Counted from the first letter of the stretch, positions 33,827 to 44,168 are shown. The stretch: 64,000 nucleotides of DNA from a virus (IMGVR_UViG_3300045988_103228:1-64000); one strand, 5' to 3'. Program-made: numbers and translations. Notes: generated by a model from the sequence alone, not told the origin.

Positions 33827-34930
33827 TTACACTCCCCAGTCATCCTCTTCCTCGTTTACAGGAGTTGCAGTAGACTTGTTAGAACCACCCCACCAAGAAG
33901 TGTCGTTCTCAGCAGCCTTACCGTCAAAGTCCTTCTTGGCCTGAGCATTGGCGGCAATTTTTGCCCGTGCCTCAGAGATATTGTCCTCAGTGTAAGTGGA
34001 CTCCGCATCCTTATCACCAGGATTCGGATCAAAGGAATCAGGGTTAACACCCTCAATATACAGCTTGCGAACCGCCGGAGTGCTCTGGCGCTTCATCTTG
34101 TTGGGGCCACCCCAGATATTCTCGGTCTCAACTTCCTCAACCTTCTGCTGATTAACGATAGGGCCAAAGCACTCAAAACTGGTATAGGGCTTCAGACGCT
34201 TACGAATAGAGTCTGCCAGAACCTTATTCTGAGTATTTGCCTTGTAATCAATGAAGAACTCCGCATCCTCAATGGTGCTGTAGTTCACGATCTTTGCATC
34301 GACAACTACCTCATCGCCCTCATCACTCTTGCGGCAACCAGTGTAAACAATGGTCTGAGTAAACAGAGCCAGCTCCTCGAAACCCTCTGCATCGAAGTCA
34401 ATTTCCTTAGAACTCAGAGACACCTGAGTAGGAACAAAACGAATCTGGTGCTTATCATTGTAAGTGCTGTACTCGATGTTACCACGAACATACACATTAT
34501 CGCCATCATGCAGGTTCTCAGAAATCTCCTTAGCTGCATCGAAATCGGTCAGAGTCTTGTTATCATTGATAACCTTACCGGACTCATTCGTCTTCTTGGT
34601 AACACCGACCTTAACGCCAATCATGTCATAACCTTCCGGTGCAACATAGGTCATGCGATCCTTCCAAGCGACTTCCTTCTTGTCCTTCTCAATGCCCTTG
34701 TCCTTATCGGCACGGCGGAAGAAGTAAACCTTATCACGAGGCATACCAGCCAGATCAACATAGAAAGTATTTTCGTTGGAAGTCTGAACGCCAAAGCTCA
34801 GGACACGGCGCATAGCACCACTCTTGGTCTCCTTCTCGTTATAGAAGTTGCTACGCTGGGTGCCGGTGACCTTACCAGCCATCTCAAAAGAACCACGGGT
34901 CTGAGGAAGATTAAAAATTCTATCTGCCAT
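33827..34930 (-). CDS. Putative ssDNA-binding protein (phage SSB-like, acidic tail)
   Basis: 367 aa. Directly upstream of the AAA_24 gene (the usual Sak4-SSB pairing). Acidic C-terminus EEEDDWGV. Family not confirmed. Confidence 0.35.
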   Translation of the reverse strand: MADRIFNLPQTRGSFEMAGKVTGTQRSNFYNEKETKSGAMRRVLSFGVQTSNENTFYVDLAGMPRDKVYFFRRADKDKGIEKDKKEVAWKDRMTYVAPEGYDMIGVKVGVTKKTNESGKVINDNKTLTDFDAAKEISENLHDGDNVYVRGNIEYSTYNDKHQIRFVPTQVSLSSKEIDFDAEGFEELALFTQTIVYTGCRKSDEGDEVVVDAKIVNYSTIEDAEFFIDYKANTQNKVLADSIRKRLKPYTSFECFGPIVNQQKVEEVETENIWGGPNKMKRQSTPAVRKLYIEGVNPDSFDPNPGDKDAESTYTEDNISEARAKIAANAQAKKDFDGKAAENDTSWWGGSNKSTATPVNEEEDDWGV

Positions 34931-35814: not shown

Positions 35815-36360
35815 TTATGAGATTTTTTTATCGAGTTTCCGTAACTCTAACTTACTTGGAAGAAAATTTCTACAGAAGTACGCACTTCCAAACGACACTC
35901 CCTCAACAGGGCTGTCAGTATGTTCAGGGTCCATAAATCCGATTCGAGAATCAAAACACAGCATCTGTACATCATTTTTGAAGATGTCAAATCGTGTCTT
36001 ACCCTGAATACTATTTGCAGGAAGTAGTAGAGCAAACGGCTTTTCAAGCTCATAGGCTCTACGCAATACTTCATCCTTCCTACTAAAAGGAGGATTTGAA
36101 ATCATAACATCCCAACGCTCTGGTTCATATGTAAAGAAATCTTGCCCGTTATCAATGTGGCTACATTCTACCTTGTACCCAGCATCTCTGAATACCTTCA
36201 CAAAGGAAGACCATTCTTTATCAAACGGACACCAAATCACAGCTTTACTCGACGGGGGGGTGAACTCAAGCAGTGGAACAACCGCATAAACCGGTGTATA
36301 TCGCTCATCACCTGATACAGATCGGTCAGCTGTAAGATATCCTTTGTTTTCTGGCATCAA
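35815..36360 (-). CDS. Putative DNA N6-adenine methyltransferase (NPPF motif)
   Basis: 181 aa. Catalytic motif IV ISNPPFS. Confidence 0.5.
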   Translation of the reverse strand: MMPENKGYLTADRSVSGDERYTPVYAVVPLLEFTPPSSKAVIWCPFDKEWSSFVKVFRDAGYKVECSHIDNGQDFFTYEPERWDVMISNPPFSRKDEVLRRAYELEKPFALLLPANSIQGKTRFDIFKNDVQMLCFDSRIGFMDPEHTDSPVEGVSFGSAYFCRNFLPSKLELRKLDKKIS

Positions 36361-36989
36361 TTCACCTCATTTTCAATGTACTCTGAAAATTGTTCTGCGA
36401 TAGCACGAGCAATCCCATGGAAGGTCTTAGCTCTATTCTTTGCATCCTCACCACGTTTAGCTGCGCCACGATTTCTTACATTGCCTTTATTGGCCGAAGT
36501 TCCACAAGGGCAATACGGACCCTTCGGTTCAACCGCTTCAACCGGAACCAGATTAGGAAGACCTTTCAGCCATAAACAGGTCTTCTTTGTCCATGGATGG
36601 TCCTTACCATAAAATTCATATGGCTGAATCATCTGCGATGGTTTTGGCATTTCATAAACAGCACTCGGAATTGGATTCTCAACACAAATGTGTTTGATCG
36701 GTGCGTTGTAAAACGCCATAAAGAATTCCTTAGCTTCTAATCCCTGTTGATACCGTTCTTGATTCAATTTGTGCCCAGCCCACAACCATCGTGCGCCAGC
36801 GTTTGATAAATATGTACACGGAGGATGTGCAATCAATAGATCCCACTGCTTAACATAGTGTTGTGTGCCGTCCATTGTGACTATCTGCCCACCCTGTAAA
36901 GCTGCCAGTGCATTACCCAAAATATGCCACTCTGGGTGACCACCGGACGGAGGTTGAATATCACAAGAATACGCTTCATGACCAAGCAA
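36357..36989 (-). CDS. DNA C5-cytosine methyltransferase (short; degenerate motif I)
   Basis: Motif IV HPPCTYLS (PC catalytic Cys), motif VI ICVENP (ENV), C-terminal motif X-like FHGIARAIAEQF. The called start is a TTG with no RBS. The in-frame upstream extension ...SYIIQDTKGGVVILRVLIACEESQE covers a degenerate motif I region and has no ATG/GTG. Confidence 0.55.
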   Translation of the reverse strand: MLGHEAYSCDIQPPSGGHPEWHILGNALAALQGGQIVTMDGTQHYVKQWDLLIAHPPCTYLSNAGARWLWAGHKLNQERYQQGLEAKEFFMAFYNAPIKHICVENPIPSAVYEMPKPSQMIQPYEFYGKDHPWTKKTCLWLKGLPNLVPVEAVEPKGPYCPCGTSANKGNVRNRGAAKRGEDAKNRAKTFHGIARAIAEQFSEYIENEVN

Positions 36990-37062
36990 TCGAAATGCTT
37001 TACAAACTTCCTGTGATTCCTCACAGGCAATTAGAACTCGTAAGATTACAACCCCTCCTTTT

Positions 37063-37083
37063 GTATCCTGTATTATATAGCTA
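37063..37083 (+). repeat. Conserved intergenic 21-nt motif, copy 5
   Basis: gtatcctgtattatatagcta. On the gene strand it is followed directly by AAAAGGAGGGG. Confidence 0.7.
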
Positions 37084-37189
37084 AAACTTTAAAAATGAGC
37101 AAAAAATAATAGACGTATTAACGTCATATTATTCATTCGCTTATAAAACAAAAGTTCTAGCGGGGTTTATGTATGCCCTTTCAGGCTGG

Positions 37190-37263
37190 TGGGACAGGAG
37201 AGATTTGAACTCCCGACCAAGCGGTTATGAGCCGCCAGCTCTGACCAACTGAGCTACTATCCC
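37190..37263 (-). tRNA. tRNA-Met(CAT): tRNA-Met/fMet (anticodon CAT)
   Basis: Hand-folded GGGATAG/CTGTCCC acceptor, D-arm GCTCAGTTGGTCAGAGC, anticodon loop CTCATAA, T-arm GGGAGTTCAAATCTCTC, CCA encoded. Confidence 0.7.
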
Positions 37264-37292
37264 ATGCAAACGCCGACTTTCATCGGCGTGAT

Positions 37293-37360
37293 GCCAGTGA
37301 AGGAATCGAACCTTATCTCTCGGTGTTTCCGAGCGCTTTTACCATTAAGCTATCCAGCCG
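37293..37360 (-). ncRNA. Degenerate tRNA-like element (possible pseudo-tRNA)
   Basis: Canonical D-arm TAGCTTAATGGTAAAAGC and T-arm AAGGTTCGATTCCTT. The anticodon arm CTCGG-AAACA-CCGAG has only a 5-nt loop, and the 5' and 3' acceptor strands do not pair. Confidence 0.3.
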
Positions 37361-37493
37361 TATACCTCAGAATTTAATTCTCACTATCCAAGCTATGTCG
37401 CGTTCCAATATGATCACTCTTGACAACCATGTCGTAACATATAGGTTTCTTTCGGCTCTGAGTAACCGGTGCAGCGTAAGGGGCTGCGTGTGG

Positions 37494-37566
37494 AGCGACT
37501 GACGGGGTATGATCCCGCAACATTCAGATTGGAAATCTGACGCTCTGCCAATTGAACTACAGTCGC
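37494..37566 (-). tRNA. tRNA-Gly(TCC): tRNA-Gly (anticodon TCC)
   Basis: Acceptor GCGACTG/CAGTCGC, anticodon arm TCAGA-TTTCCAA-TCTGA, unusual T-loop ATCATAC, CCA encoded. Confidence 0.6.
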
Positions 37567-37675
37567 ATAATCACCCAGCTTGCAAAGCACTACTGCACCA
37601 TCACTGGCGAGCTGGGAATAATAGTGGTAATCAAAGGAGATCAACAAACGGTACGCAACCATAAGTTGATAATGG

Positions 37676-37761
37676 TGGACACGACCCGATTTGAACGGGC
37701 ACACCGCTGTTAACGGCAAAAGAGCCTAAATCTTTCATGTCTGCGATTCCATCACGTGTCC
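37676..37761 (-). tRNA. tRNA-Leu(TAG): tRNA-Leu (anticodon TAG), class II
   Basis: Acceptor GGACACG/CGTGTCC, anticodon arm AAAGA-TTTAGGC-TCTTT, long variable arm, T-arm GCCCGTTCAAATCGGGT, CCA encoded. Confidence 0.6.
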
Positions 37762-37766
37762 ATAAA

Positions 37767-37856
37767 TTGAGGGTGTCGGGATCGAACCGACGATCGGCTA
37801 TAAAGCACGCTGTCTGGGTCAAAGCCAGATGCCATTTACCACTTGGTGAACCCTCA
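37767..37856 (-). tRNA. tRNA with anticodon TTG (nominally Gln) but a class-II-like 21-nt variable region; identity uncertain
   Basis: Perfect 7-bp acceptor TGAGGGT/ACCCTCA. Anticodon arm TCTGG-CTTTGAC-CCAGA. T-arm GTCGGTTCGATCCCGAC. Discriminator A, no encoded CCA. Confidence 0.45.
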
Positions 37857-37955
37857 TTATGTAACTTGGCTTGCTGCGTCCTACTGCTCCGTTTTTTTGG
37901 AGAGCCAAGAATAATAGGAAGGTATTCATGAAAAGCAAGTGGAATACTCCACTGG

Positions 37956-38026
37956 TCCAAAATGTCGAATTCGAATCGCTCTTCTGCGTCCCAAACGCAG
38001 CGTGCTGCCATTACACTACATTTTGG
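37956..38026 (-). tRNA. tRNA-Pro(TGG): tRNA-Pro (anticodon TGG)
   Basis: Anticodon arm CTGCG-TTTGGGA-CGCAG. 8-bp complementarity at the termini CCAAAATG/CATTTTGG. Weak T-stem around TTCGAAT. CCA encoded. Confidence 0.5.
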
Positions 38027-38032
38027 ATATGG

Positions 38033-38117
38033 TGCCGCAGGTGGGATTCAAACCCACGATCCGTGTTTCAGGCGTCCCGGTTTAAGCGGGAAATGTATGT
38101 CACTCCATCACTGCGGC
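38033..38117 (-). tRNA. tRNA-Leu(TAA): tRNA-Leu (anticodon TAA), class II
   Basis: Acceptor GCCGCAG/CTGCGGC, anticodon arm TCCCG-CTTAAAC-CGGGA, T-arm GTGGGTTTGAATCCCAC, CCA encoded. Confidence 0.65.
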
Positions 38118-38159
38118 ATATACAGAAGCTGTATAAAATACAGCTTCATTCTTTTGAAA

Positions 38160-38756
38160 TTATTCTTTGCTAGTATTGTTTATATCGGATCTTCTATAAG
38201 GCAGTCCATAGTATTTACACCACTTACGAATAGAAGTTCCTGTTACACCATACTTTTCTCCAACTTTAGAAAATGACATAACACGGATATCTTTTTCAAG
38301 CTGACTTCTTTCTGGCAACCCTTTAGATCTTCTGTATGGAAGACTATAAAGACATTCTTTGCATAGTGTCCCTTTTGTTCTTGGACTCAATTCTTTCCAA
38401 CATTTTGCGCAAGATTTTGTCTCGCGCTTTTTGCGTTCGTTCTTTCCTTTTTGTATTGTTTCTTTCTTCGGGAACTTGATTTCATTTTCAAGCATAAGTT
38501 CTCGTGCTTTTTCATACCAGCTTTTAGCTATGTAATTTATTCCCACTTTTCCTAACGCCTCACCAATAGACTTCGATGTTTTAAGCGCCTTTACAAACTC
38601 TTCATCGGATACAGCTCTATGTCTCTTAATATTTCTCCCGCAATAATTTTCTGTTTGTGAATGACAATTAGGACACAGTAGCTTGAGATTTGATAACTCA
38701 TTATTCAGCCTATCTCCATCAATATGATGAACTTCTAACGAAATTTCCTTTCCCAT
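38160..38756 (-). CDS. HNH homing endonuclease with a C-terminal HTH DNA-binding region
   Basis: 198 aa. N-terminal HNH motif LEVHHIDGDRLNN...NLKLLCPNCH. C-terminal HTH-like KVGEKYGVTGTSIRKWCKYYGL. Adjacent to the tRNA cluster, as with seg/HNH genes in T4-like tRNA regions. Confidence 0.75.
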   Translation of the reverse strand: MGKEISLEVHHIDGDRLNNELSNLKLLCPNCHSQTENYCGRNIKRHRAVSDEEFVKALKTSKSIGEALGKVGINYIAKSWYEKARELMLENEIKFPKKETIQKGKNERKKRETKSCAKCWKELSPRTKGTLCKECLYSLPYRRSKGLPERSQLEKDIRVMSFSKVGEKYGVTGTSIRKWCKYYGLPYRRSDINNTSKE

Positions 38757-38873
38757 CTATTCCTTGTTTCCACAGCATTCACATTTATGTTCTCTTATGA
38801 GTAAGAGCGATTCTCTTAACCCTTTGAATGGAACGCCCTGTTTAAATCTTGTCAAATCAATATTACCTTTATT

Positions 38874-39056
38874 CTAACCTTGTCCCGTAAAATAAGAAGT
38901 GTCAATATTATTTTCGTCTGCATATGTTTGGATTACATCCCTAGAGCTTCCTCCGAATTTGCTGTAACCAAGTTTCTCAGCCACAGTAGCCCAGTTGTTG
39001 CTCTCTTTAAAAATCTGCTCGATCTCTTCTTTTGAAAATTTTTCAATTCTTTTCAT
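38874..39056 (-). CDS. Small HTH-like protein (possible homing-endonuclease DNA-binding-domain remnant)
   Basis: 60 aa. SNNWATVAEKLGYSKFGGSSRDVI resembles NUMOD/HTH modules of homing endonucleases. Confidence 0.3.
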   Translation of the reverse strand: MKRIEKFSKEEIEQIFKESNNWATVAEKLGYSKFGGSSRDVIQTYADENNIDTSYFTGQG

Positions 39057-39090
39057 GAACTTGCCTCCAGTATTTAATAGGTGAATATTC

Positions 39091-39177
39091 GGACTCTGGT
39101 GCCCAAGGCGGTATTCGAAACCGCACGCGATATCTCACGCAAAGCTGTTTGGGAGCTTCATGTCTACCTCATTCCAT
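39091..39177 (-). tRNA. tRNA-Leu(CAA): tRNA-Leu (anticodon CAA), class II, with C at position 33
   Basis: Acceptor GCCCAAG/CTTGGGC. Anticodon arm AAGCT-CCCAAAC-AGCTT. Canonical T-arm GCGGTTTCGAATACCGC. CCA encoded. Lies inside the spurious plus-strand ORF 39081..39299. Confidence 0.55.
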
Positions 39178-39187
39178 CACTTGGGCA

Positions 39188-39236
39188 TATAATTGCCGGT
39201 CTTTCCCGGCTGTCAGCCCCGCGCAGGGCATTTTCG
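39188..39236 (-). terminator. Tandem hairpins downstream of the Pnkp-like gene (putative terminator or processing site ahead of the tRNA)
   Basis: gccggtctttcccggc and gccccgcgcagggc stem-loops, read on both strands. Confidence 0.3.
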
Positions 39237-39255
39237 GAGGAAGAAAATATCTTAG

Positions 39256-41466
39256 TTATTCGTGCCGATTCTCATAGAATTCATTCCGTAACTGAATAAT
39301 ACCCTTCTTGCAAAAAGATTCCTGGTCTTTCTCTCGTTGCTCACGCATCCAACCATAGAACAGGTTATCCTCAGCAGTAAACAACTTTGCGGTATTTTCA
39401 TAATAGCCACGCTTTTGAACGCTCTGCATAACACTACGCAAAAACTTCCAGTGTTTGTAGTAAGGAAGCTTCAGCTTGAACATAAAGTTCGTGCTATCCA
39501 GAAGGACAAACCCTTCAATATGTTCAAAGCCATGATGCAGATAGTTCTCGTTCATGACTCCCTCGTACCAAGGATAGAATTCACTCCAGCTCTCAAAGAT
39601 TTTAACCTTCTCCTTAATCTGCAAATGACACTTTTCAGCAGCACGCTTCAGATCATCGTAATCCATCACACTGAAGTTCATATCATTCGCAACAATATCC
39701 AGCAAAACAATGTGCGGTTTCTTGTATTCGATGATATGAGCATCATTTACAGGATCAATCACCTCAAAAATGATGGAACCATTCTCTTTTGCAACTTCCT
39801 TCAGATTCTTACGGTCTTCATCAGAAGTCGTATCCATGAGAATCTTTCGGAACATATCTGCAAAAGGCCCTTCAGGAGTGGATTTACTTGCAATGAACAG
39901 ACCATCCTGTTCTGCATCATACGAGACAATGCCAAGAAATCCGTTTTCCTTCAGATATGCAGTCACCGGGAACTTCAAAGTGTTCTGTAGGTTTCCAATT
40001 CTCGTTTCATTCCGCTCATCGACCGCAAAGAACTTATCATAGCTTCGAGCTACAATCTTATTCGTCTTTGTGTTAATGAACAATCCCCTTGCTTTGGTAG
40101 AAACCTCATCCCAGTGCTTCTTATAAAATGCTTCACGAGAGAAGTTGAAAGAAGAAATATCTCCGAATCGCTTCTCAAACACATATTTGCTTTGACGCAT
40201 CTTACTGACAAGTTCTGCGTTATCGAACTCAGTTTTCATTTCAACGGTAGTTTCAGTCTTTGACTCCTCTTTTCGGAACACATCATTCTTTGTTTCTACA
40301 CATTTGATTGACTGACCGTGTTCAAGTTCCACGCAACGGAGATATCCACCAAACTCGATTTTTCCTTCGAGGTTGTAGCACCGATGCCCCATATCAATAG
40401 GAACATCCTGCACATTTCGATGACCGAATATCTGAATGTAGCTATCCGGCATCGATTTTTCCCAAGACTCAGCCACGGTTAGCATATCAGGATAGCGACC
40501 AACACCCTTTACCATCTGGTCAGTAGACACGAATGGTAGAAATTCAGGCAAATAACTCAAACCACCATGGCTAACGAAGTATCTTTTCTCGTCGTAATCA
40601 AAATAGGAGCACTGTCCTACTCTCGAATAAACCTTACGAGCCGTATTATGGTCAATCCCTGCTTTGAAAAGCTGCGGACGAGTGTAGTTTGCGAACTCCT
40701 CGCTCTGAACCGGTTCATCATGGCCCCACTTGTTCAGCCACCGTTCGTGATTTCCTTCAAGGAGAATTACATTCTTCCGATTATTGTCTACAACATCACA
40801 AAGGAACTTGAACATCTCTACATTCTCAATACCGCGATCCAGATAATCACCAACAAAAATGTACAGTTCATCATCCTTCAGGTCACCAAGGTACTCTTTC
40901 AAGCAACTGTAACATCCATGTACATCACCGATGATATGAATTTTGTTCCAGTTGTTAAAGTCCTGCGGAACATAGTTCAATTTCTCAAGGACATTTATAT
41001 CTGACGAAAGTACAGTCACACCAGACGGAATCTTCTGTGTAGCAAATCGCGCATACATCTTATCAATAGCAGCATCTGGAACTCGCTTCAGAGGAGCACG
41101 AAGCGCATTACGCCGTTTACACTCATCAATCGGCAAATCAGTCATGTCGATGATGTACATTCTGTATCTGTACTGCTTTGCAAGATTCTTATAGCGATTG
41201 ATTTCAACAGTTTTAGAGTTCGTTGCATCAATCACGGTAAATTCACCGTGAGACATCCGAACCTCCAACAGTTTAAAGAGCATATCCCAGACAACATCAT
41301 CGTTCTGGGGAGAGATTTCCATTGTGCCAGCCGGGGTTTCCTGACCACCCTGACACATAAGGCGAATCGTATCGGCACTAAGCGTATACTTTTCCAGATC
41401 ATGCTCTTTAATATAGGTGGACTTCCCGCATCCTGGTGCTCCACGGAAAAGAAGCAAAGTTCTCAT
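39256..41466 (-). CDS. Polynucleotide kinase-phosphatase-ligase (bacterial Pnkp-like RNA repair enzyme)
   Basis: 736 aa with three domains. N-terminal P-loop kinase GAPGCGKST. Central calcineurin-like phosphatase GDVHG, GDYLDRG, GNHE. C-terminal ~350-aa nucleotidyltransferase/ligase-like domain with STKARGLFIN. Confidence 0.7.
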   Translation of the reverse strand: MRTLLLFRGAPGCGKSTYIKEHDLEKYTLSADTIRLMCQGGQETPAGTMEISPQNDDVVWDMLFKLLEVRMSHGEFTVIDATNSKTVEINRYKNLAKQYRYRMYIIDMTDLPIDECKRRNALRAPLKRVPDAAIDKMYARFATQKIPSGVTVLSSDINVLEKLNYVPQDFNNWNKIHIIGDVHGCYSCLKEYLGDLKDDELYIFVGDYLDRGIENVEMFKFLCDVVDNNRKNVILLEGNHERWLNKWGHDEPVQSEEFANYTRPQLFKAGIDHNTARKVYSRVGQCSYFDYDEKRYFVSHGGLSYLPEFLPFVSTDQMVKGVGRYPDMLTVAESWEKSMPDSYIQIFGHRNVQDVPIDMGHRCYNLEGKIEFGGYLRCVELEHGQSIKCVETKNDVFRKEESKTETTVEMKTEFDNAELVSKMRQSKYVFEKRFGDISSFNFSREAFYKKHWDEVSTKARGLFINTKTNKIVARSYDKFFAVDERNETRIGNLQNTLKFPVTAYLKENGFLGIVSYDAEQDGLFIASKSTPEGPFADMFRKILMDTTSDEDRKNLKEVAKENGSIIFEVIDPVNDAHIIEYKKPHIVLLDIVANDMNFSVMDYDDLKRAAEKCHLQIKEKVKIFESWSEFYPWYEGVMNENYLHHGFEHIEGFVLLDSTNFMFKLKLPYYKHWKFLRSVMQSVQKRGYYENTAKLFTAEDNLFYGWMREQREKDQESFCKKGIIQLRNEFYENRHE

Positions 41467-41544
41467 CGTTTTCTCTCCTTTTTATCAACGTATTATCGCT
41501 ATTTATTTATTTCCAATTCTTCATAAAATGTCTATTTTAGTTTA

Positions 41545-41565
41545 GTATCCTGTGTCATATAGTTA
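41545..41565 (+). repeat. Conserved intergenic 21-nt motif, copy 6
   Basis: gtatcctgtgtcatatagtta, ~75 nt upstream of the Pnkp RBS. Confidence 0.65.
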
Positions 41566-41577
41566 TGATGTTAAAAT

Positions 41578-41600
41578 CAAGGGGCCGAAGCCCCCTGTTT
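41578..41600 (-). terminator. Rho-independent terminator after the integrase-like gene
   Basis: ggggccgaagcccc stem with T-runs on both strands (bidirectional shape). Confidence 0.55.
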
Positions 41601-42527
41601 TTAATTTTTGTGGAAGTATTCGACCCAGCCCTTGTATCCCTGCCGGAAACTAATGTAAGCTACCTTGCTACACTTTCTTCCAATAATGTCTGCAAGAGGT
41701 TTTTTACCATTTCCGAAACTAAGCTCCGCAAGGTTGAACTCTGAATTACTCTTACAGTAATCGTAGACCTTCACATACTCACCATTTCTGGTCAGATGTC
41801 TTCGATCTAAAATCTTTGTATGATGTCTTTTTTCGAGAATGTCATTCAGCCTCACAAAATAACTATGGATTGTATTTACAGACATCTTCGGGTCGCTGTC
41901 TACACCAGTTCTATCCTCTGTTTTACGAAGAATGTAATCACCATTTATGACATAAAATGTTCTGTATCCTCCCATATTGGGCGCATCATACTGTTTCATT
42001 TCATAACACTGCTTGATGATATCCATCAACCTTGCGTCAACATCAGTCCTATCGAGGACAGTACGAGATTCAAAGTCTACATCGTTAATTGTTAGATTAG
42101 AAACCTCACTAGAAGTAAGACCGATCCAGTACAAAACAGCAATCACATTCATACGAATCTGATACGCTTCTTCATACTTGTTTAAGAAACCAACAAACTC
42201 ATCAACCGATGCAAAATACTTATCCTCGTACATATTGTCTGAACTCACATCGCTCTCTGAGAATTCAGCCAAATCATACATGCTTGTACGATTTTCGTTC
42301 TTGATATAACCAGTGATTATCGATTTCACATTTCTGAATGAACGACTTGAGTTTACCCAATTGTATTTGGCAAACATCTTTACAAAATCATCTTTTGTGA
42401 AGTCGAATAGCTCATACCCGCACTCCGCTTCGTAGTCCATAACATGGTTAAGTGTCGATATAACAAACTCGCCGCTTCTATCAGAATACTTTTCAGCAAA
42501 AGCGTTGATCTTTTCTTCAGTAAGCAT
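41601..42527 (-). CDS. Hypothetical protein with divergent tyrosine-recombinase-like features
   Basis: 308 aa. IAVLYWIGLTSSEVSNLTINDVDFESRTV resembles the integrase box I region. HSYFVRL and a C-terminal VAYISFRQGY are weak matches to box II and the catalytic Tyr. Confidence 0.3.
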   Translation of the reverse strand: MLTEEKINAFAEKYSDRSGEFVISTLNHVMDYEAECGYELFDFTKDDFVKMFAKYNWVNSSRSFRNVKSIITGYIKNENRTSMYDLAEFSESDVSSDNMYEDKYFASVDEFVGFLNKYEEAYQIRMNVIAVLYWIGLTSSEVSNLTINDVDFESRTVLDRTDVDARLMDIIKQCYEMKQYDAPNMGGYRTFYVINGDYILRKTEDRTGVDSDPKMSVNTIHSYFVRLNDILEKRHHTKILDRRHLTRNGEYVKVYDYCKSNSEFNLAELSFGNGKKPLADIIGRKCSKVAYISFRQGYKGWVEYFHKN

Positions 42528-42580
42528 AATGGCACACTCCTTCTTATTATATGTAGTGTACCATTAACCCTTATAAAAAA

Positions 42581-43000
42581 TCAAGCAAATGCGGCAAAAT
42601 TCTGAAATTCCATAGTATGTTGTACGCCGCTCACGAACGCCGAGATCAAAAACGGTTCATCCTTGCATCTGGCCATTGCGATCATATTCATATGACGCTC
42701 AGACAAGACACCAAGCTTTTTGATAAACTGCCCTTTGTTAAGTGTGTCAGTCTCTTCACAGAGAACGATACTGTCAACCTCTAGGAAATCGCAATCTTCC
42801 TTTGAGAGCAGGACATGAACCGGAGAACGCTTGTATGTTCTGGAAGACAACGGATTCCCTTTGATTGTGGGACTGAAGAAGTTGCGCTTATTGTTACTCG
42901 TCACAACGAACGGTCGAATACCGCGCTGCTGATGACCTGTCGCATTGGATAGATCAACCAACCAAACCTCTCCGACCTTTGGGTCAATATTGTTGTCCAT
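42581..43000 (-). CDS. MazF/PemK-family endoribonuclease toxin-like protein
   Basis: 139 aa. GEVWLVDLSNATGHQQRGIRPFVVTS aligns to the MazF N-terminal motif (GDIVWVDFDPTVGHEQAGKRPAVVLS). Further similarity across the MazF fold. No MazE-like partner adjacent. Confidence 0.6.
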   Translation of the reverse strand: MDNNIDPKVGEVWLVDLSNATGHQQRGIRPFVVTSNNKRNFFSPTIKGNPLSSRTYKRSPVHVLLSKEDCDFLEVDSIVLCEETDTLNKGQFIKKLGVLSERHMNMIAMARCKDEPFLISAFVSGVQHTMEFQNFAAFA

Positions 43001-43036
43001 AGTCTTTCTCCTCTATAATAGTGTAGCTCCGTTCCA

Positions 43037-43057
43037 TAGCTATATTATACAGGATAC
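43037..43057 (-). repeat. Conserved intergenic 21-nt motif, copy 7 (inverted)
   Basis: tagctatattatacaggatac, just upstream of the mazF-like RBS. Confidence 0.65.
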
Positions 43058-43091
43058 CTTTACAGAAGTCAATAGGTTTTCGAAAATATTT

Positions 43092-43418
43092 TTAGTGCCC
43101 GTACAACTCTGGATTCTCTGATACGAACACGCTGGTGTTATCGAAGATCATCTCATACGCTTTCTCTTTATCGCCCGGCCTAAACTCAACCCTCCTTACT
43201 TCGTAGCATTCTTGCCGCAGCTCAACATGACTTTCGTTTCCAAAAAATCCAATGCCTTTGACAATCCCATGTGTCTCTACACCAATATCGTTCATCTTCT
43301 TGCAGATCATGTGAACATCCACACCATTACAAATAAAGCAGACCCACACTCGCTTTTTTCTTATGTACTTCAAAAAGTTTTCAACCTGTATAATTTCCAA
43401 AACCTTTTTCTCACTCAT
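43092..43418 (-). CDS. Hypothetical protein
   Basis: 108-aa ORF. Confidence 0.45.
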   Translation of the reverse strand: MSEKKVLEIIQVENFLKYIRKKRVWVCFICNGVDVHMICKKMNDIGVETHGIVKGIGFFGNESHVELRQECYEVRRVEFRPGDKEKAYEMIFDNTSVFVSENPELYGH

Positions 43419-43456
43419 TGAAATACCGCCTTCCGCTCACATAAACAACTTTCAAG

Positions 43457-43509
43457 ATATATTATACACATCTTTTTGTTTTCGTCAATATATTACACAT
43501 CTTTTTGTT
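43457..43509. repeat. Direct repeat pair ATATATTA(T)ACACATCTTTTTGTT (2 copies, ~30 bp apart) upstream of 43092..43418
   Basis: Copy 1 at 43457-43480 and copy 2 at 43488-43509, read directly. Confidence 0.5.
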
Positions 43510-43541
43510 GTATTATTTATCGAAATTTTAGATGATGCCAT

Positions 43542-44168
43542 TTACTCAGCATCATCCACAACCAGCTTCGCGTCATAATAAAACCTGTGTGCGCCAAATT
43601 GTCCAGCAAATGTTGCTCCTCGCTCGTGCCAACTGCCGGGAGCTGCCGCCGGGGTTACAAACCATTGAATAGGTTTGTCCGAAATCTTAGCGCCGTAGTC
43701 AAACACCATAGATACGGCCAGCTCGTTCTCTGCCGTCACATTCCTATTATATAAGGTACTATACCCATACTTCTTAAAGACTTCCTGTATTGTAATCCCA
43801 TCAATCACAGCAGAATCATAAAGACATTGAGCCACAGCCATCTGACCTTCTAAGCTATCAGCACCTGCTTCACAAGCAACGATCTGCTCTGCAAGAGCAC
43901 GCTCGTCATCGGTGAGTTCGCATTTCCCCTGGCTAAAGTTCACCACTTTCGTCTCAACAACAGTCTCTACAATGACTTCTGGCTCCTTTTCCTCTTGCTG
44001 CACAGTACTCACTGCCGGAGGACTACTATTATAAAGGTACGAATTGCTCTGATTCTGAATCACCGGGCTGATCTTCGATACCAGATTCCCTGCCAGCAGG
44101 CACATTATACATATAATAGCAATACTTTGCTCACGATTTATTAACAAATTAGGGTTAATAAGAATCAC
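43542..44168 (-). CDS. Cell-wall hydrolase, SleB-like (Hydrolase_2 family) with N-terminal TM/signal anchor
   Basis: 208 aa. ALAEQIVACEAGADSLEGQMAVAQCLYDS matches the Hydrolase_2 core. Hydrophobic N-terminus. Confidence 0.6.
   Translation of the reverse strand: MILINPNLLINREQSIAIICIMCLLAGNLVSKISPVIQNQSNSYLYNSSPPAVSTVQQEEKEPEVIVETVVETKVVNFSQGKCELTDDERALAEQIVACEAGADSLEGQMAVAQCLYDSAVIDGITIQEVFKKYGYSTLYNRNVTAENELAVSMVFDYGAKISDKPIQWFVTPAAAPGSWHERGATFAGQFGAHRFYYDAKLVVDDAE

Follow-up and report, generated by a model that had tools for sequence, protein, structure and literature searches.

The 64,000-nucleotide (nt) viral sequence IMGVR_UViG_3300045988_103228:1-64000, hereafter the window (the whole stretch of DNA that was analysed), carries between positions 37187 and 41466 a tRNA array, an HNH homing endonuclease gene and a gene for a 736-amino-acid (aa) protein with the predicted features of a three-domain RNA end-healing and sealing enzyme. 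The enzyme gene occupies 39256..41466 on the minus strand, and the array begins 70 nt past the stop codon of this open reading frame (ORF). ARAGORN called seven tRNA genes, all on the minus strand and together spanning 37187-39186, and Rfam added one marginal element. The eight tRNA or tRNA-like genes that an initial annotation, made from the sequence alone, had placed beside the 736-aa protein were thus recovered, whereas its description of the cluster as bracketed by the HNH gene was not, since that gene (38160..39056, minus strand) is a mobile insertion inside the array, between tRNA-Leu(CAA) and tRNA-Leu(TAA). The interval is probably best explained as three separable things, namely an RNA repair enzyme, an array that serves the tRNA pool, and a selfish HNH gene in which TAG would be decoded as Trp. 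The most unexpected element is the last of these, an apparently amber-gated homing endonuclease, together with a Trp-derived suppressor tRNA that is encoded in related genomes.

The window is 99.9% identical across 20 kb to one ENA metagenome contig and is a mosaic relative (89-98% identity) of IMG/VR genomes of 125-138 kb. By its gene content the lineage belongs to the SPbeta-like gut phages, an assignment based on an MrpR/YopR-like gene (weak Pfam match), a YorF-like gene (33827-34930) and the occurrence of the best matches to the enzyme in SPbeta-like phages. A megablast search of positions 36000-44000 against cultured and GenBank phages returned just three short, tRNA-sized matches; the lineage is absent from that collection. 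On the host side, the matches were family-level relatives only, in Lachnospiraceae and Oscillospiraceae genomes.

Domains and conserved residues of the 736-aa enzyme

The Pfam domains found in the protein, AAA_33 (residues 4-142), Metallophos (175-353) and RNA_lig_T4_1 (458-670; E 2.5e-38), correspond to the kinase, calcineurin-like phosphatase and ligase-like domains named in the initial annotation, and the score for RNA_lig_T4_1 (PF09511) is 132.6 bits against a gathering score of 28.3. The AF2 model of the protein has a pLDDT of 90.1 and one disordered linker, at residues 401-413, ahead of the ligase domain. Invariance of residues was counted in an alignment of 33 family members of 49-62% identity, and the roles of the residues were taken from PMC3675462, PMC6379707 and PMC1920235.

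The first domain (residues ~1-165; 40972..41466, minus strand) is predicted to be a P-loop polynucleotide 5'-kinase of the CthPnk type. It matches CthPnk (4gp7/4jst) in phmmer searches with an E value of 4e-6, Foldseek against the PDB retrieves the Clostridium thermocellum Pnk with TMt values of 0.71-0.76, and the invariant residues are G9, G12, G14, K15, D32, R35, R119 and R123. The second domain (residues ~170-400; 40267..40959, minus strand) has the motifs and fold of a binuclear metallophosphoesterase and is presumed to act as a 2',3'-cyclic phosphodiesterase and 3'-phosphatase. Its invariant residues (D181 and H183 of GDxHG, D207 and R211 of GDxxDRG, N239 and H240 of GNHE, H300 and H349) are the counterparts of the essential CthPnkp phosphatase residues listed in PMC3675462, and the Foldseek matches include lambda phosphatase (1g5b, TMt 0.71) and the CthPnkp phosphatase (4j6o, TMt 0.66). 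Mutation of His189 in CthPnkp shifts the product from 2'-OH to 2'-PO4 (PMC1920235); because the counterpart of this residue, H183, is kept, the predicted products of healing are 2',3'-OH ends.

The third domain (residues ~414-736; 39259..40227, minus strand) is predicted to be an ATP-dependent RNA ligase of the Rnl1/Trl1 (Rnl6-like) type. The invariant residues comprise K506-x-N508-G509 (motif I), E568 (motif III), E651-G652 (motif IV) and K664-x-K666 (motif V), so that a nucleotidyltransferase fold with motifs I, III, IV and V is present, and the possibility raised in the initial annotation that the C-terminal region has no such fold can be set aside. The top Foldseek matches of this domain are structures of the ligase domain of fungal Trl1 (Trl1-LIG; 9qw7/6n0t/6n67/8rbj), with TMt values of 0.64-0.69 over 355-373 columns of targets of 372-395 residues, followed by T4 Rnl1 (TMt 0.55, root-mean-square deviation 8-10 Å). 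The same two proteins were the sole matches among PDB sequences, with E values of 5e-16 to 5e-8 for Trl1-LIG.

By homology, the 736-aa protein is a complete healing-and-sealing enzyme. The kinase would phosphorylate 5'-OH ends, the Mn-type phosphoesterase would open and remove 2',3'-cyclic or 3' phosphates to leave 2',3'-OH ends, and the Rnl1/Trl1-type ligase, adenylylated at K506, would join 3'-OH to 5'-PO4 ends. It is very improbable that the protein instead repairs DNA ends in the manner of PNKP, or that its second domain is a lambda-type protein phosphatase without a role on RNA. Some phage records do label the protein a Ser/Thr phosphatase, phrog_246 (NinI-like phosphatase) matches residues 3-403, and eukaryotic protein phosphatases occur among the fold matches; however, the ligase domain falls in RNA-specific clades, and the nearest match of the kinase is CthPnk, which acts in RNA repair. 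The neighbours of the gene in distant relatives (loci of relatives are given L numbers) also count against a DNA or protein phosphatase function. In L327 (10216-11280, 18121-18226) RlaP lies immediately downstream of the three-domain gene with Thg1 nearby, while in L328 (6878-7312, 10630-11226) the gene is preceded by a Macro domain and followed by an RLIG1-family ligase. These RlaP, Thg1, Macro and RLIG1 neighbours support a role in RNA repair and, together with the RNA-specific ligase clade, favour RNA over DNA as the substrate.

Family distribution and comparison with known repair systems

The protein matches phrog_8238 ('RNA ligase') over its full length (E 2.1e-223, residues 1-733 against positions 1-732 of the 737 in the profile), and tblastn identified 113 phage records with a full-length relative. 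The relatives are found in SPbeta-like Bacillus phages (45% identity), in one Alicyclobacillus phage, in Twort-like and Kayvirus phages of Staphylococcus (~37% identity), where the labels vary from RNA ligase and tRNA ligase to polynucleotide kinase and Ser/Thr phosphatase, and in Brochothrix and Lactobacillus phages. The window protein is thus of the same family as those of the phrog_8238 phages, with 37-45% identity over 99% of the protein, but in those phages there is no tRNA cluster beside the gene. A large protein database contained 4198 homologues at E<=1e-10, most of them with the same three Pfam domains. A genome scan using the single protein gave no close relative and was replaced by a second, alignment-based scan. 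Copies of 43-52% identity occur in species-representative genomes of Lachnospiraceae and Oscillospiraceae (Acetatifactor, Coprococcus, Hungatella, Flintibacter and Flavonifractor); the presence of phage-type genes in the two contexts sampled indicates that these Clostridia copies probably lie in prophages. Full-text literature searches found no paper that characterises a member of phrog_8238 biochemically.

In the initial annotation, the protein was taken for a one-gene fusion with the domain architecture of Pnkp from the bacterial Pnkp/Hen1 system. Pnkp of bacteria, too, is a single polypeptide. The two proteins share the order kinase, metallophosphoesterase, ligase, and their kinase and phosphatase modules are homologous, with the essential residues all kept (PMC3675462). 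Although these two modules are of the Pnkp type, sequence comparison indicates that the phage protein is not a bacterial Pnkp. The protein reaches 73.6 bits with the Pnkp equivalog model TIGR04075, whose cut-off is 750, and the alignment is confined to residues 4-304. At E<=10, the ligase domain matched neither the Pnkp (Rnl4) ligase nor the Rnl of the Pnkp1-Rnl-Hen1 complex among PDB sequences, and the Pnkp ligase is absent from the Foldseek top 50 for this domain. Compared to bacterial Pnkp, the phage protein has a ligase domain unrelated in sequence to the Rnl4 type, is ~130 residues shorter, and is encoded in phages and prophages instead of a cellular pnkp-hen1 operon. It also has no adjacent Hen1 partner, the neighbours being the MrpR-like gene upstream and the tRNAs, the HNH gene and methyltransferases downstream (the rest of the window was not scanned for Hen1).

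The best match in both sequence and fold for residues ~430-735 is the fungal Trl1 LIG domain (Rnl6 clade), including its C-terminal helical module. The phmmer alignment to Trl1 reaches residue 732 and covers the ...IIxLRNEF segment, so that the core and the helical module are both represented. By the criterion of PMC6379707, this likeness through the C-terminal helical module places the ligase nearer to the Rnl6 clade than to Rnl1 proper. In Trl1, an RxxR motif has been proposed to bind the 2'-PO4 (PMC6379707); the site is partly kept in the phage family as K671-x-x-K674 (YKHWKFLR aligned to Y-R-Q-W-R), with K674 and R677 invariant and position 671 variable. Trl1 is also a trifunctional heal-and-seal polypeptide. 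However, its domains are arranged as LIG-KIN-CPD instead of kinase-phosphatase-ligase, and its 3' healing is performed by a 2H cyclic phosphodiesterase instead of a calcineurin-like metallophosphoesterase.

The T4 Pnk and Rnl1 proteins, which are likewise phage-encoded, provide the same chemistry (5' kinase, 3' phosphatase and ATP-dependent PF09511 RNA ligase), and their reversal of PrrC cleavage of tRNA-Lys is the functional analogy behind the role proposed here (PMC6379707, PMC7824862). In T4, however, the activities reside in two proteins, and the removal of 3' phosphates falls to a DxDxT (HAD) enzyme (PMC3592404) instead of a metallophosphoesterase. No match extended to the C-domain that gives Rnl1 its specificity for the tRNA anticodon loop, the alignments to 2c5u/5tt6 stopping near residue 680. 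Judged by its domain composition, the window protein is a chimera of Pnkp-type healing and Trl1/Rnl1-type sealing, a novel variation on an established type of system that lies within an already catalogued family. With the family assignment mended in this way, the biochemical interpretation given in the initial annotation largely holds.

Composition and turnover of the tRNA array

All array members lie on the minus strand. Starting from the enzyme, the array consists of tRNA-Leu(CAA) (39097..39186; called by ARAGORN), the HNH gene, tRNA-Leu(TAA) (38030..38117; ARAGORN, Rfam 47.0 bits), tRNA-Pro(TGG) (37953..38026; ARAGORN, Rfam 47.1 bits), tRNA-Gln(TTG) (37767..37856; ARAGORN, Rfam 44.8 bits), tRNA-Leu(TAG), a reader of CUA/CUN (37673..37761; ARAGORN, Rfam 44.1 bits), tRNA-Gly(TCC) (37491..37566; ARAGORN, Rfam 61 bits), a degenerate tRNA-like element (37292..37358) and a tRNA with the anticodon CAT (37187..37263; ARAGORN, Rfam 66.7 bits). 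The degenerate element is a marginal call, with 30.1 bits against the Rfam gathering score of 29 and no call by ARAGORN. The gene listed in the initial annotation simply as 'TTG' is thereby resolved as tRNA-Gln, while its label 'Met' for the CAT tRNA probably does not stand: the G1-C72 pair shows that this tRNA is not an initiator, and four relatives have a TAT-anticodon allele in the same slot (loop CTTATAA versus CTCATAA), which makes it probably a tRNA-Ile2.

Several array members are unusual. The tRNA-Leu(CAA) has the anticodon loop CCCAAAC, where C33 replaces the universal U33, and is missed by the Rfam tRNA model even at E<=1. Of 79 relatives, 13 share this C33 allele and the remainder have U33; the allele could represent either a defective copy or an altered anticodon loop. 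The tRNA-Gln(TTG) has a U1-A72 pair and an expanded variable region of 21 nt, for a total of 90 nt. In relatives this gene is mostly 71-74 nt long and measures 88-90 nt in eight. A separate 88-nt long-arm allele of tRNA-Gln is present in other relatives, and the CAT tRNA has long-arm alleles of 81 and 92 nt; such class-II-like arms are unusual for Gln and Ile2/Met tRNAs. The expanded tRNA-Gln and tRNA-Met genes were considered as intron-bearing ligase substrates and ruled out, the extra nucleotides being in the variable region and away from the anticodon. The slot between Leu-TAG and Gly-TCC has three alternative occupants (L004 13898-13971, L026 and L049; window 37292-37358): an odd 74-nt tRNA-like gene called 'His-ATG', with loop TGATGAA and G33; a second Gly-TCC; or, in the window, the degenerate element, which has a 5-nt loop.

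Compared slot by slot among relatives L008-L087, the tRNA sequences are very diverse, with stems that differ throughout, while the anticodons and their order are constant. Because these diverse alleles lie beside ligase genes of 90-100% identity, the pattern suggests cassette-like replacement or rapid diversification of the tRNA slots.

Association of the array with the enzyme and possible roles

The same tRNA order is found directly 3' of the enzyme gene, on the same strand, in ~79 relatives with ligases of 90-100% identity. Adjacency to tRNAs is a fixed feature of this SPbeta-like gut lineage and not a trait of the family, so that the notion of a tRNA and ligase module holds within the lineage, whereas outside it the gene mostly lacks tRNA neighbours. 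Five of the 80 genome loci have clusters of at least three tRNAs. In two of the five, L383 and L384, with ~48% identity, a Leu-TAG, Pro-TGG, Gln-TTG and Leu-CAA set abuts the gene, directly upstream of it.

A possible, if doubtful, alternative is that the two are coincidental neighbours, the array serving only to meet the codon demand of a 41% GC phage in a differently biased host and the enzyme an unrelated accessory gene. This view gains from the lack of tRNAs beside the gene in most family members, from a second tRNA cluster located far from the ligase in relatives, and from the fact that the codons read by the array are all A-ending or rare (TTA, CTA, CCA, CAA, GGA, ATA and TTG). However, those codons are also minor in the phage genes of the window, where TTA, TTG and CTA contribute 9%, 17% and 7% of Leu codons, ATA 7% of Ile codons and CAA 26% of Gln codons. 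In addition, coincidence fits poorly with the fixation of adjacency, strand and order in ~79 relatives despite heavy mosaicism elsewhere, with the similar tRNA set that abuts the gene at the two loci of ~48% identity, and with the rapid turnover of tRNA alleles under constant anticodons.

The most likely joint role is that the tRNAs and the enzyme together keep the tRNA pool working during infection, the array tRNAs replacing or supplementing those of the host while the enzyme would rejoin RNAs after cleavage by metal-independent RNases, whose products have 2',3'-cyclic phosphate (2',3'>p) and 5'-OH ends. Candidate RNases include anticodon nucleases and the RNases of toxin-antitoxin or abortive-infection systems. 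A comparative-genomics proposal that sets phage RNA ligases, kinases and phosphoesterases, along with tRNAs, against tRNA-targeting RNases has already been published (PMC7824862), and by analogy with it a counter-defence role for the window genes is plausible and was anticipated, in general form, in the literature.

The enzyme might instead mainly handle mRNA or rRNA cut by MazF-type, toxin-antitoxin or abortive-infection endoribonucleases, possibly including the phage's own MazF-like toxin, although this is unlikely. MazF-type cleavage leaves 2',3'>p and 5'-OH ends, a substrate for the predicted chemistry of the enzyme. A MazF/PemK-like endoribonuclease toxin gene (42581..43000, minus strand; Pfam PemK_toxin E 4.5e-19; phrog_1936) lies two genes upstream of the enzyme, and an order of PemK, an unannotated gene of 311-320 aa with no Pfam match, and the ligase three genes on recurs in Flintibacter-type prophages with 51% identity. 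The C-domain of the ligase is, moreover, Trl1-like and unlike the tRNA-specific C-domain of T4 Rnl1. On the other hand, tblastn, which has low sensitivity for this purpose, places a MazF homologue near the ligase in just 3 of the 80 genome loci, and the PemK-type toxin has no confirmed antitoxin.

Several points weigh against a joint role of the enzyme and the array in maintaining the tRNA pool. No tRNA is found within 6-8 kb of the gene in SPbetaL2, Alicyclobacillus KKP_3916 or Brochothrix ADU4, and in Twort the only one is a tRNA-Met ~5.8 kb away. Among the genome loci, a tRNA lies within 8 kb in 21 of 80 and within 3 kb in 9 of 80, the latter being, by a rough estimate, near the chance level for large tRNA-bearing phages. 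Within the window, the C33 tRNA-Leu(CAA) and one tRNA-like element appear defective, and because the codons read by the array are minor in the phage's own genes, codon supply is neither supported nor excluded. As for the enzyme, its activities are deduced from intact motifs and folds, and its Trl1-like C-domain might require a 2'-PO4 that the predicted healing chemistry would not leave.

In-frame TAG codons in the HNH homing endonuclease gene

The HNH gene comprises 298 codons in one frame, belongs to phrog_10822 and is interrupted by two in-frame TAG codons (38874-38876 and 38757-38759), so that it does not form an uninterrupted ORF in the standard code. The two pieces 38874-39056 and 38160-38756, which share a frame, align with positions 2-60 and 113-240 of phrog_10822, and the catalytic motif EVHHIDGD...N...N...CPNCH (families PF13392/PF01844) is present. 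Only a subset of the relatives has the gene, which is found at two insertion points, and in one relative it lies elsewhere in the array. In T5-like, Gordonia, Rhodococcus and Salmonella jumbo phages, homologues of the gene adjoin tRNA genes, often tRNA-Leu. The patchy presence and the tRNA-side homologues identify it as a mobile homing endonuclease of tRNA clusters that has no part in repair.

Both TAG codons occur at the same positions in homologues of 65-74% nucleotide identity from six other genomes, and the positions are identical across four lineages with saturated synonymous divergence (dS). A third TAG, present in three of the six homologue genomes, is TGG in the window. While synonymous sites are saturated among the HNH copies, the ratio of nonsynonymous to synonymous divergence (dN/dS) is 0.11-0.25 before, between and after the stops. 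Standard-code homologues (alignment A1) have Trp at all of these TAG positions, and the second position is invariant. The conserved positions, the low dN/dS at saturated dS and the Trp residues in standard-code homologues argue that the TAG codons are not the product of decay.

A second, unrelated endonuclease family occupies the site just 3' of the ligase in one relative (L073 12447-13130) and has an in-frame TAG where three of three standard-code homologues have Trp. According to the codon counts of the window, Trp makes up ~9% of the codons that are one mutation from TAG, and the chance that four of four sites would be Trp is ~6e-5 (this value and the ~3e-4 given below are our own arithmetic). 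When all loci were screened blindly for ORFs that contain TAG, antisense ORFs dominated the output, and the HNH family and the L073 endonuclease were the only convincing cases.

It is improbable that the HNH gene is simply a decaying pseudogene in which TGG codons became TAG by nonsense mutation, with the CUA tRNA described below serving some other purpose. A change from TGG to TAG needs only a single transition, the near-identical copy in L003 has an extra stop, and L019 keeps only a 188-nt remnant. Decay does not, however, readily account for the same two TAG codons in lineages with saturated dS, for dN/dS of 0.11-0.25 on either side of them and no frameshifts over ~295 codons, or for all four TAG sites, from two unrelated endonuclease families, being Trp sites.

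A Trp-derived amber suppressor tRNA and TAG usage

A second, highly variable tRNA cluster lies outside the window, ~41-45 kb from the ligase in relatives (L122-L201, L202-L320 and L314 5437-5508, the last on the minus strand), and contains Thr, Thr, Ser, Asn, Lys, Tyr and Met tRNAs in varied combinations. Many of these clusters include a tRNA with a CTA anticodon, of which 21 sequence variants were recovered. The CUA tRNAs fold as a cloverleaf in which 13 of 21 pairs show compensatory changes. They have a G1-U72 pair and the discriminator G73, and share their acceptor stem and loop context with the tRNA-Trp(CCA) that occupies the same slot (CTCTAAA versus CTCCAAA). Among 74 full-length second-cluster loci, 39 have the suppressor, 11 have tRNA-Trp(CCA), 24 have neither and none has both. 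According to a pattern scan, at least 119 IMG/VR contigs contain the suppressor. ARAGORN misses the copy in contig 119437, the closest complete relative, although the Rfam tRNA model gives it 40.0 bits. All eight genomes with TAG-containing endonuclease genes carry the suppressor, compared to 53% overall, an association that again speaks against decay of the HNH gene.

No CTA anticodon was found within the window, either among the seven ARAGORN tRNAs or in a whole-window Rfam scan. Two other candidates for the suppressor were rejected: the Leu-TAG tRNA of the array is a normal CUN reader, and the 'His-ATG' elements of relatives have the loop TGATGAA instead of CTA.

The use of TAG as a terminator was examined in 64 non-overlapping window genes of at least 90 codons on the minus strand. 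TAA closes 38 of them and TGA the other 26, which leaves none with TAG, whereas TAG makes up 12% of stop-type trinucleotides on the coding strand, and zero in 64 would arise by chance with a probability of ~3e-4. This absence, which a pseudogene would not explain, fits a lineage that often carries an amber suppressor. Genome-wide recoding of TAG was ruled out, since treating TAG as a sense codon adds almost no coding length and only the HNH gene gains from it. There is no in-frame TAG in the gene for the terminase large subunit (TerL) and the next ~10 kb of late genes in contig 119437, or in the 64 window genes; within this scope, which leaves ~38 kb of the relative outside, recoding appears to be restricted to endonucleases.

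On balance, the observations tilt toward a partial change of the genetic code, in which TAG is read as Trp through a tRNA-Trp-derived suppressor (CCA->CUA) that gates selfish endonucleases of at least two unrelated families. The TAG codons of the HNH gene would be read as Trp by the phage-encoded suppressor tRNA(CUA), so that the endonuclease would be made only when this tRNA is expressed. Endonucleases of this kind would be silent in the lysogen or in cells without the suppressor and switched on when the phage tRNA cluster is expressed, and the genome as a whole would shun TAG terminators in order to tolerate the suppressor. Certain facts count against such gating of the endonuclease. The suppressor is known from relatives and not from the window's own genome, which would also be compatible with a pseudogene; that genome is a mosaic, 98% identical to a suppressor-bearing relative, with the position of the second cluster beyond the window. 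Because the late genes lack in-frame TAG codons, they do not explain the main purpose of the suppressor. It is also possible that tRNA-Trp(CUA) carries an amino acid other than Trp.

No report of natural TAG-to-Trp decoding in phages was found in the literature; phage surveys have seen only TAG-to-Gln and TGA-to-Trp, and in Agate phages one intron homing endonuclease is preferentially recoded with TGA (bioRxiv 10.1101/2021.08.26.457843; PMC11210395). The recoded gut phages (TAG to Gln, code 15; TGA to Trp, code 4) resemble the present lineage in having a phage suppressor tRNA, in avoiding the recoded codon as a terminator, and in placing in-frame stops in a gene that is harmful if expressed at the wrong time (bioRxiv 10.1101/2021.08.26.457843). 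They differ in that here TAG would be read as Trp, the suppressor is derived from tRNA-Trp, and the affected genes are so far homing endonuclease genes only. In the late genes and window genes covered, a spread of recoded stops through late, structural and lysis genes, with TAG as Gln, was not observed, and four of four TAG sites align with Trp. The phAss-1 group, in which TAG is read as Gln (PMC10607447), is a separate lineage.

Neighbouring genes

Upstream of the enzyme and outside the module lies a gene for an MrpR/YopR-like (SPbeta master-repressor-like) protein of the tyrosine-recombinase fold (41601..42527, minus strand; phrog_5830), for which Pfam MrpR_N_CB gives 21.9 bits, under the cut-off of 27, and MrpR_C_cat is marked weak. 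The PemK-type toxin gene adjoins this repressor-like gene and is itself preceded by a 108-aa ORF (43092-43418) with no family match, which is a possible antitoxin. Downstream of the tRNA array are two DNA methyltransferase-like ORFs that overlap by 4 nt, at 35815-36360 (phrog_799) and 36357-36989 (phrog_757); the near-identical contig L003 has one 475-aa DNA_methylase gene in place of the pair. In ~9 relatives (L469-L477), the terminase large-subunit gene is 98-100% identical to a 553-aa query and spans 2054 nt compared to 1659 nt, which suggests that the ~395 extra bases are a small intron or other insertion.

Implications

The three-domain enzyme is widespread (~4200 homologues) and occurs in therapeutic Staphylococcus phages of the Twort-like group, in SPbeta-like phages and in many Clostridia prophages. 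If it repairs RNA breaks inflicted by defence systems, Firmicutes phages would have in it a widespread anti-defence factor. The enzyme would also offer a compact heal-and-seal reagent and a test case for the need of Trl1-like ligases for a 2'-PO4. If the amber-gating of the endonucleases is correct, TAG-to-Trp would be added to the natural codon reassignments, and annotators would be warned against calling such genes pseudogenes. Recoding could then control selfish genes instead of late genes, and this phage lineage would provide a clean natural example of the gating of a toxic gene.

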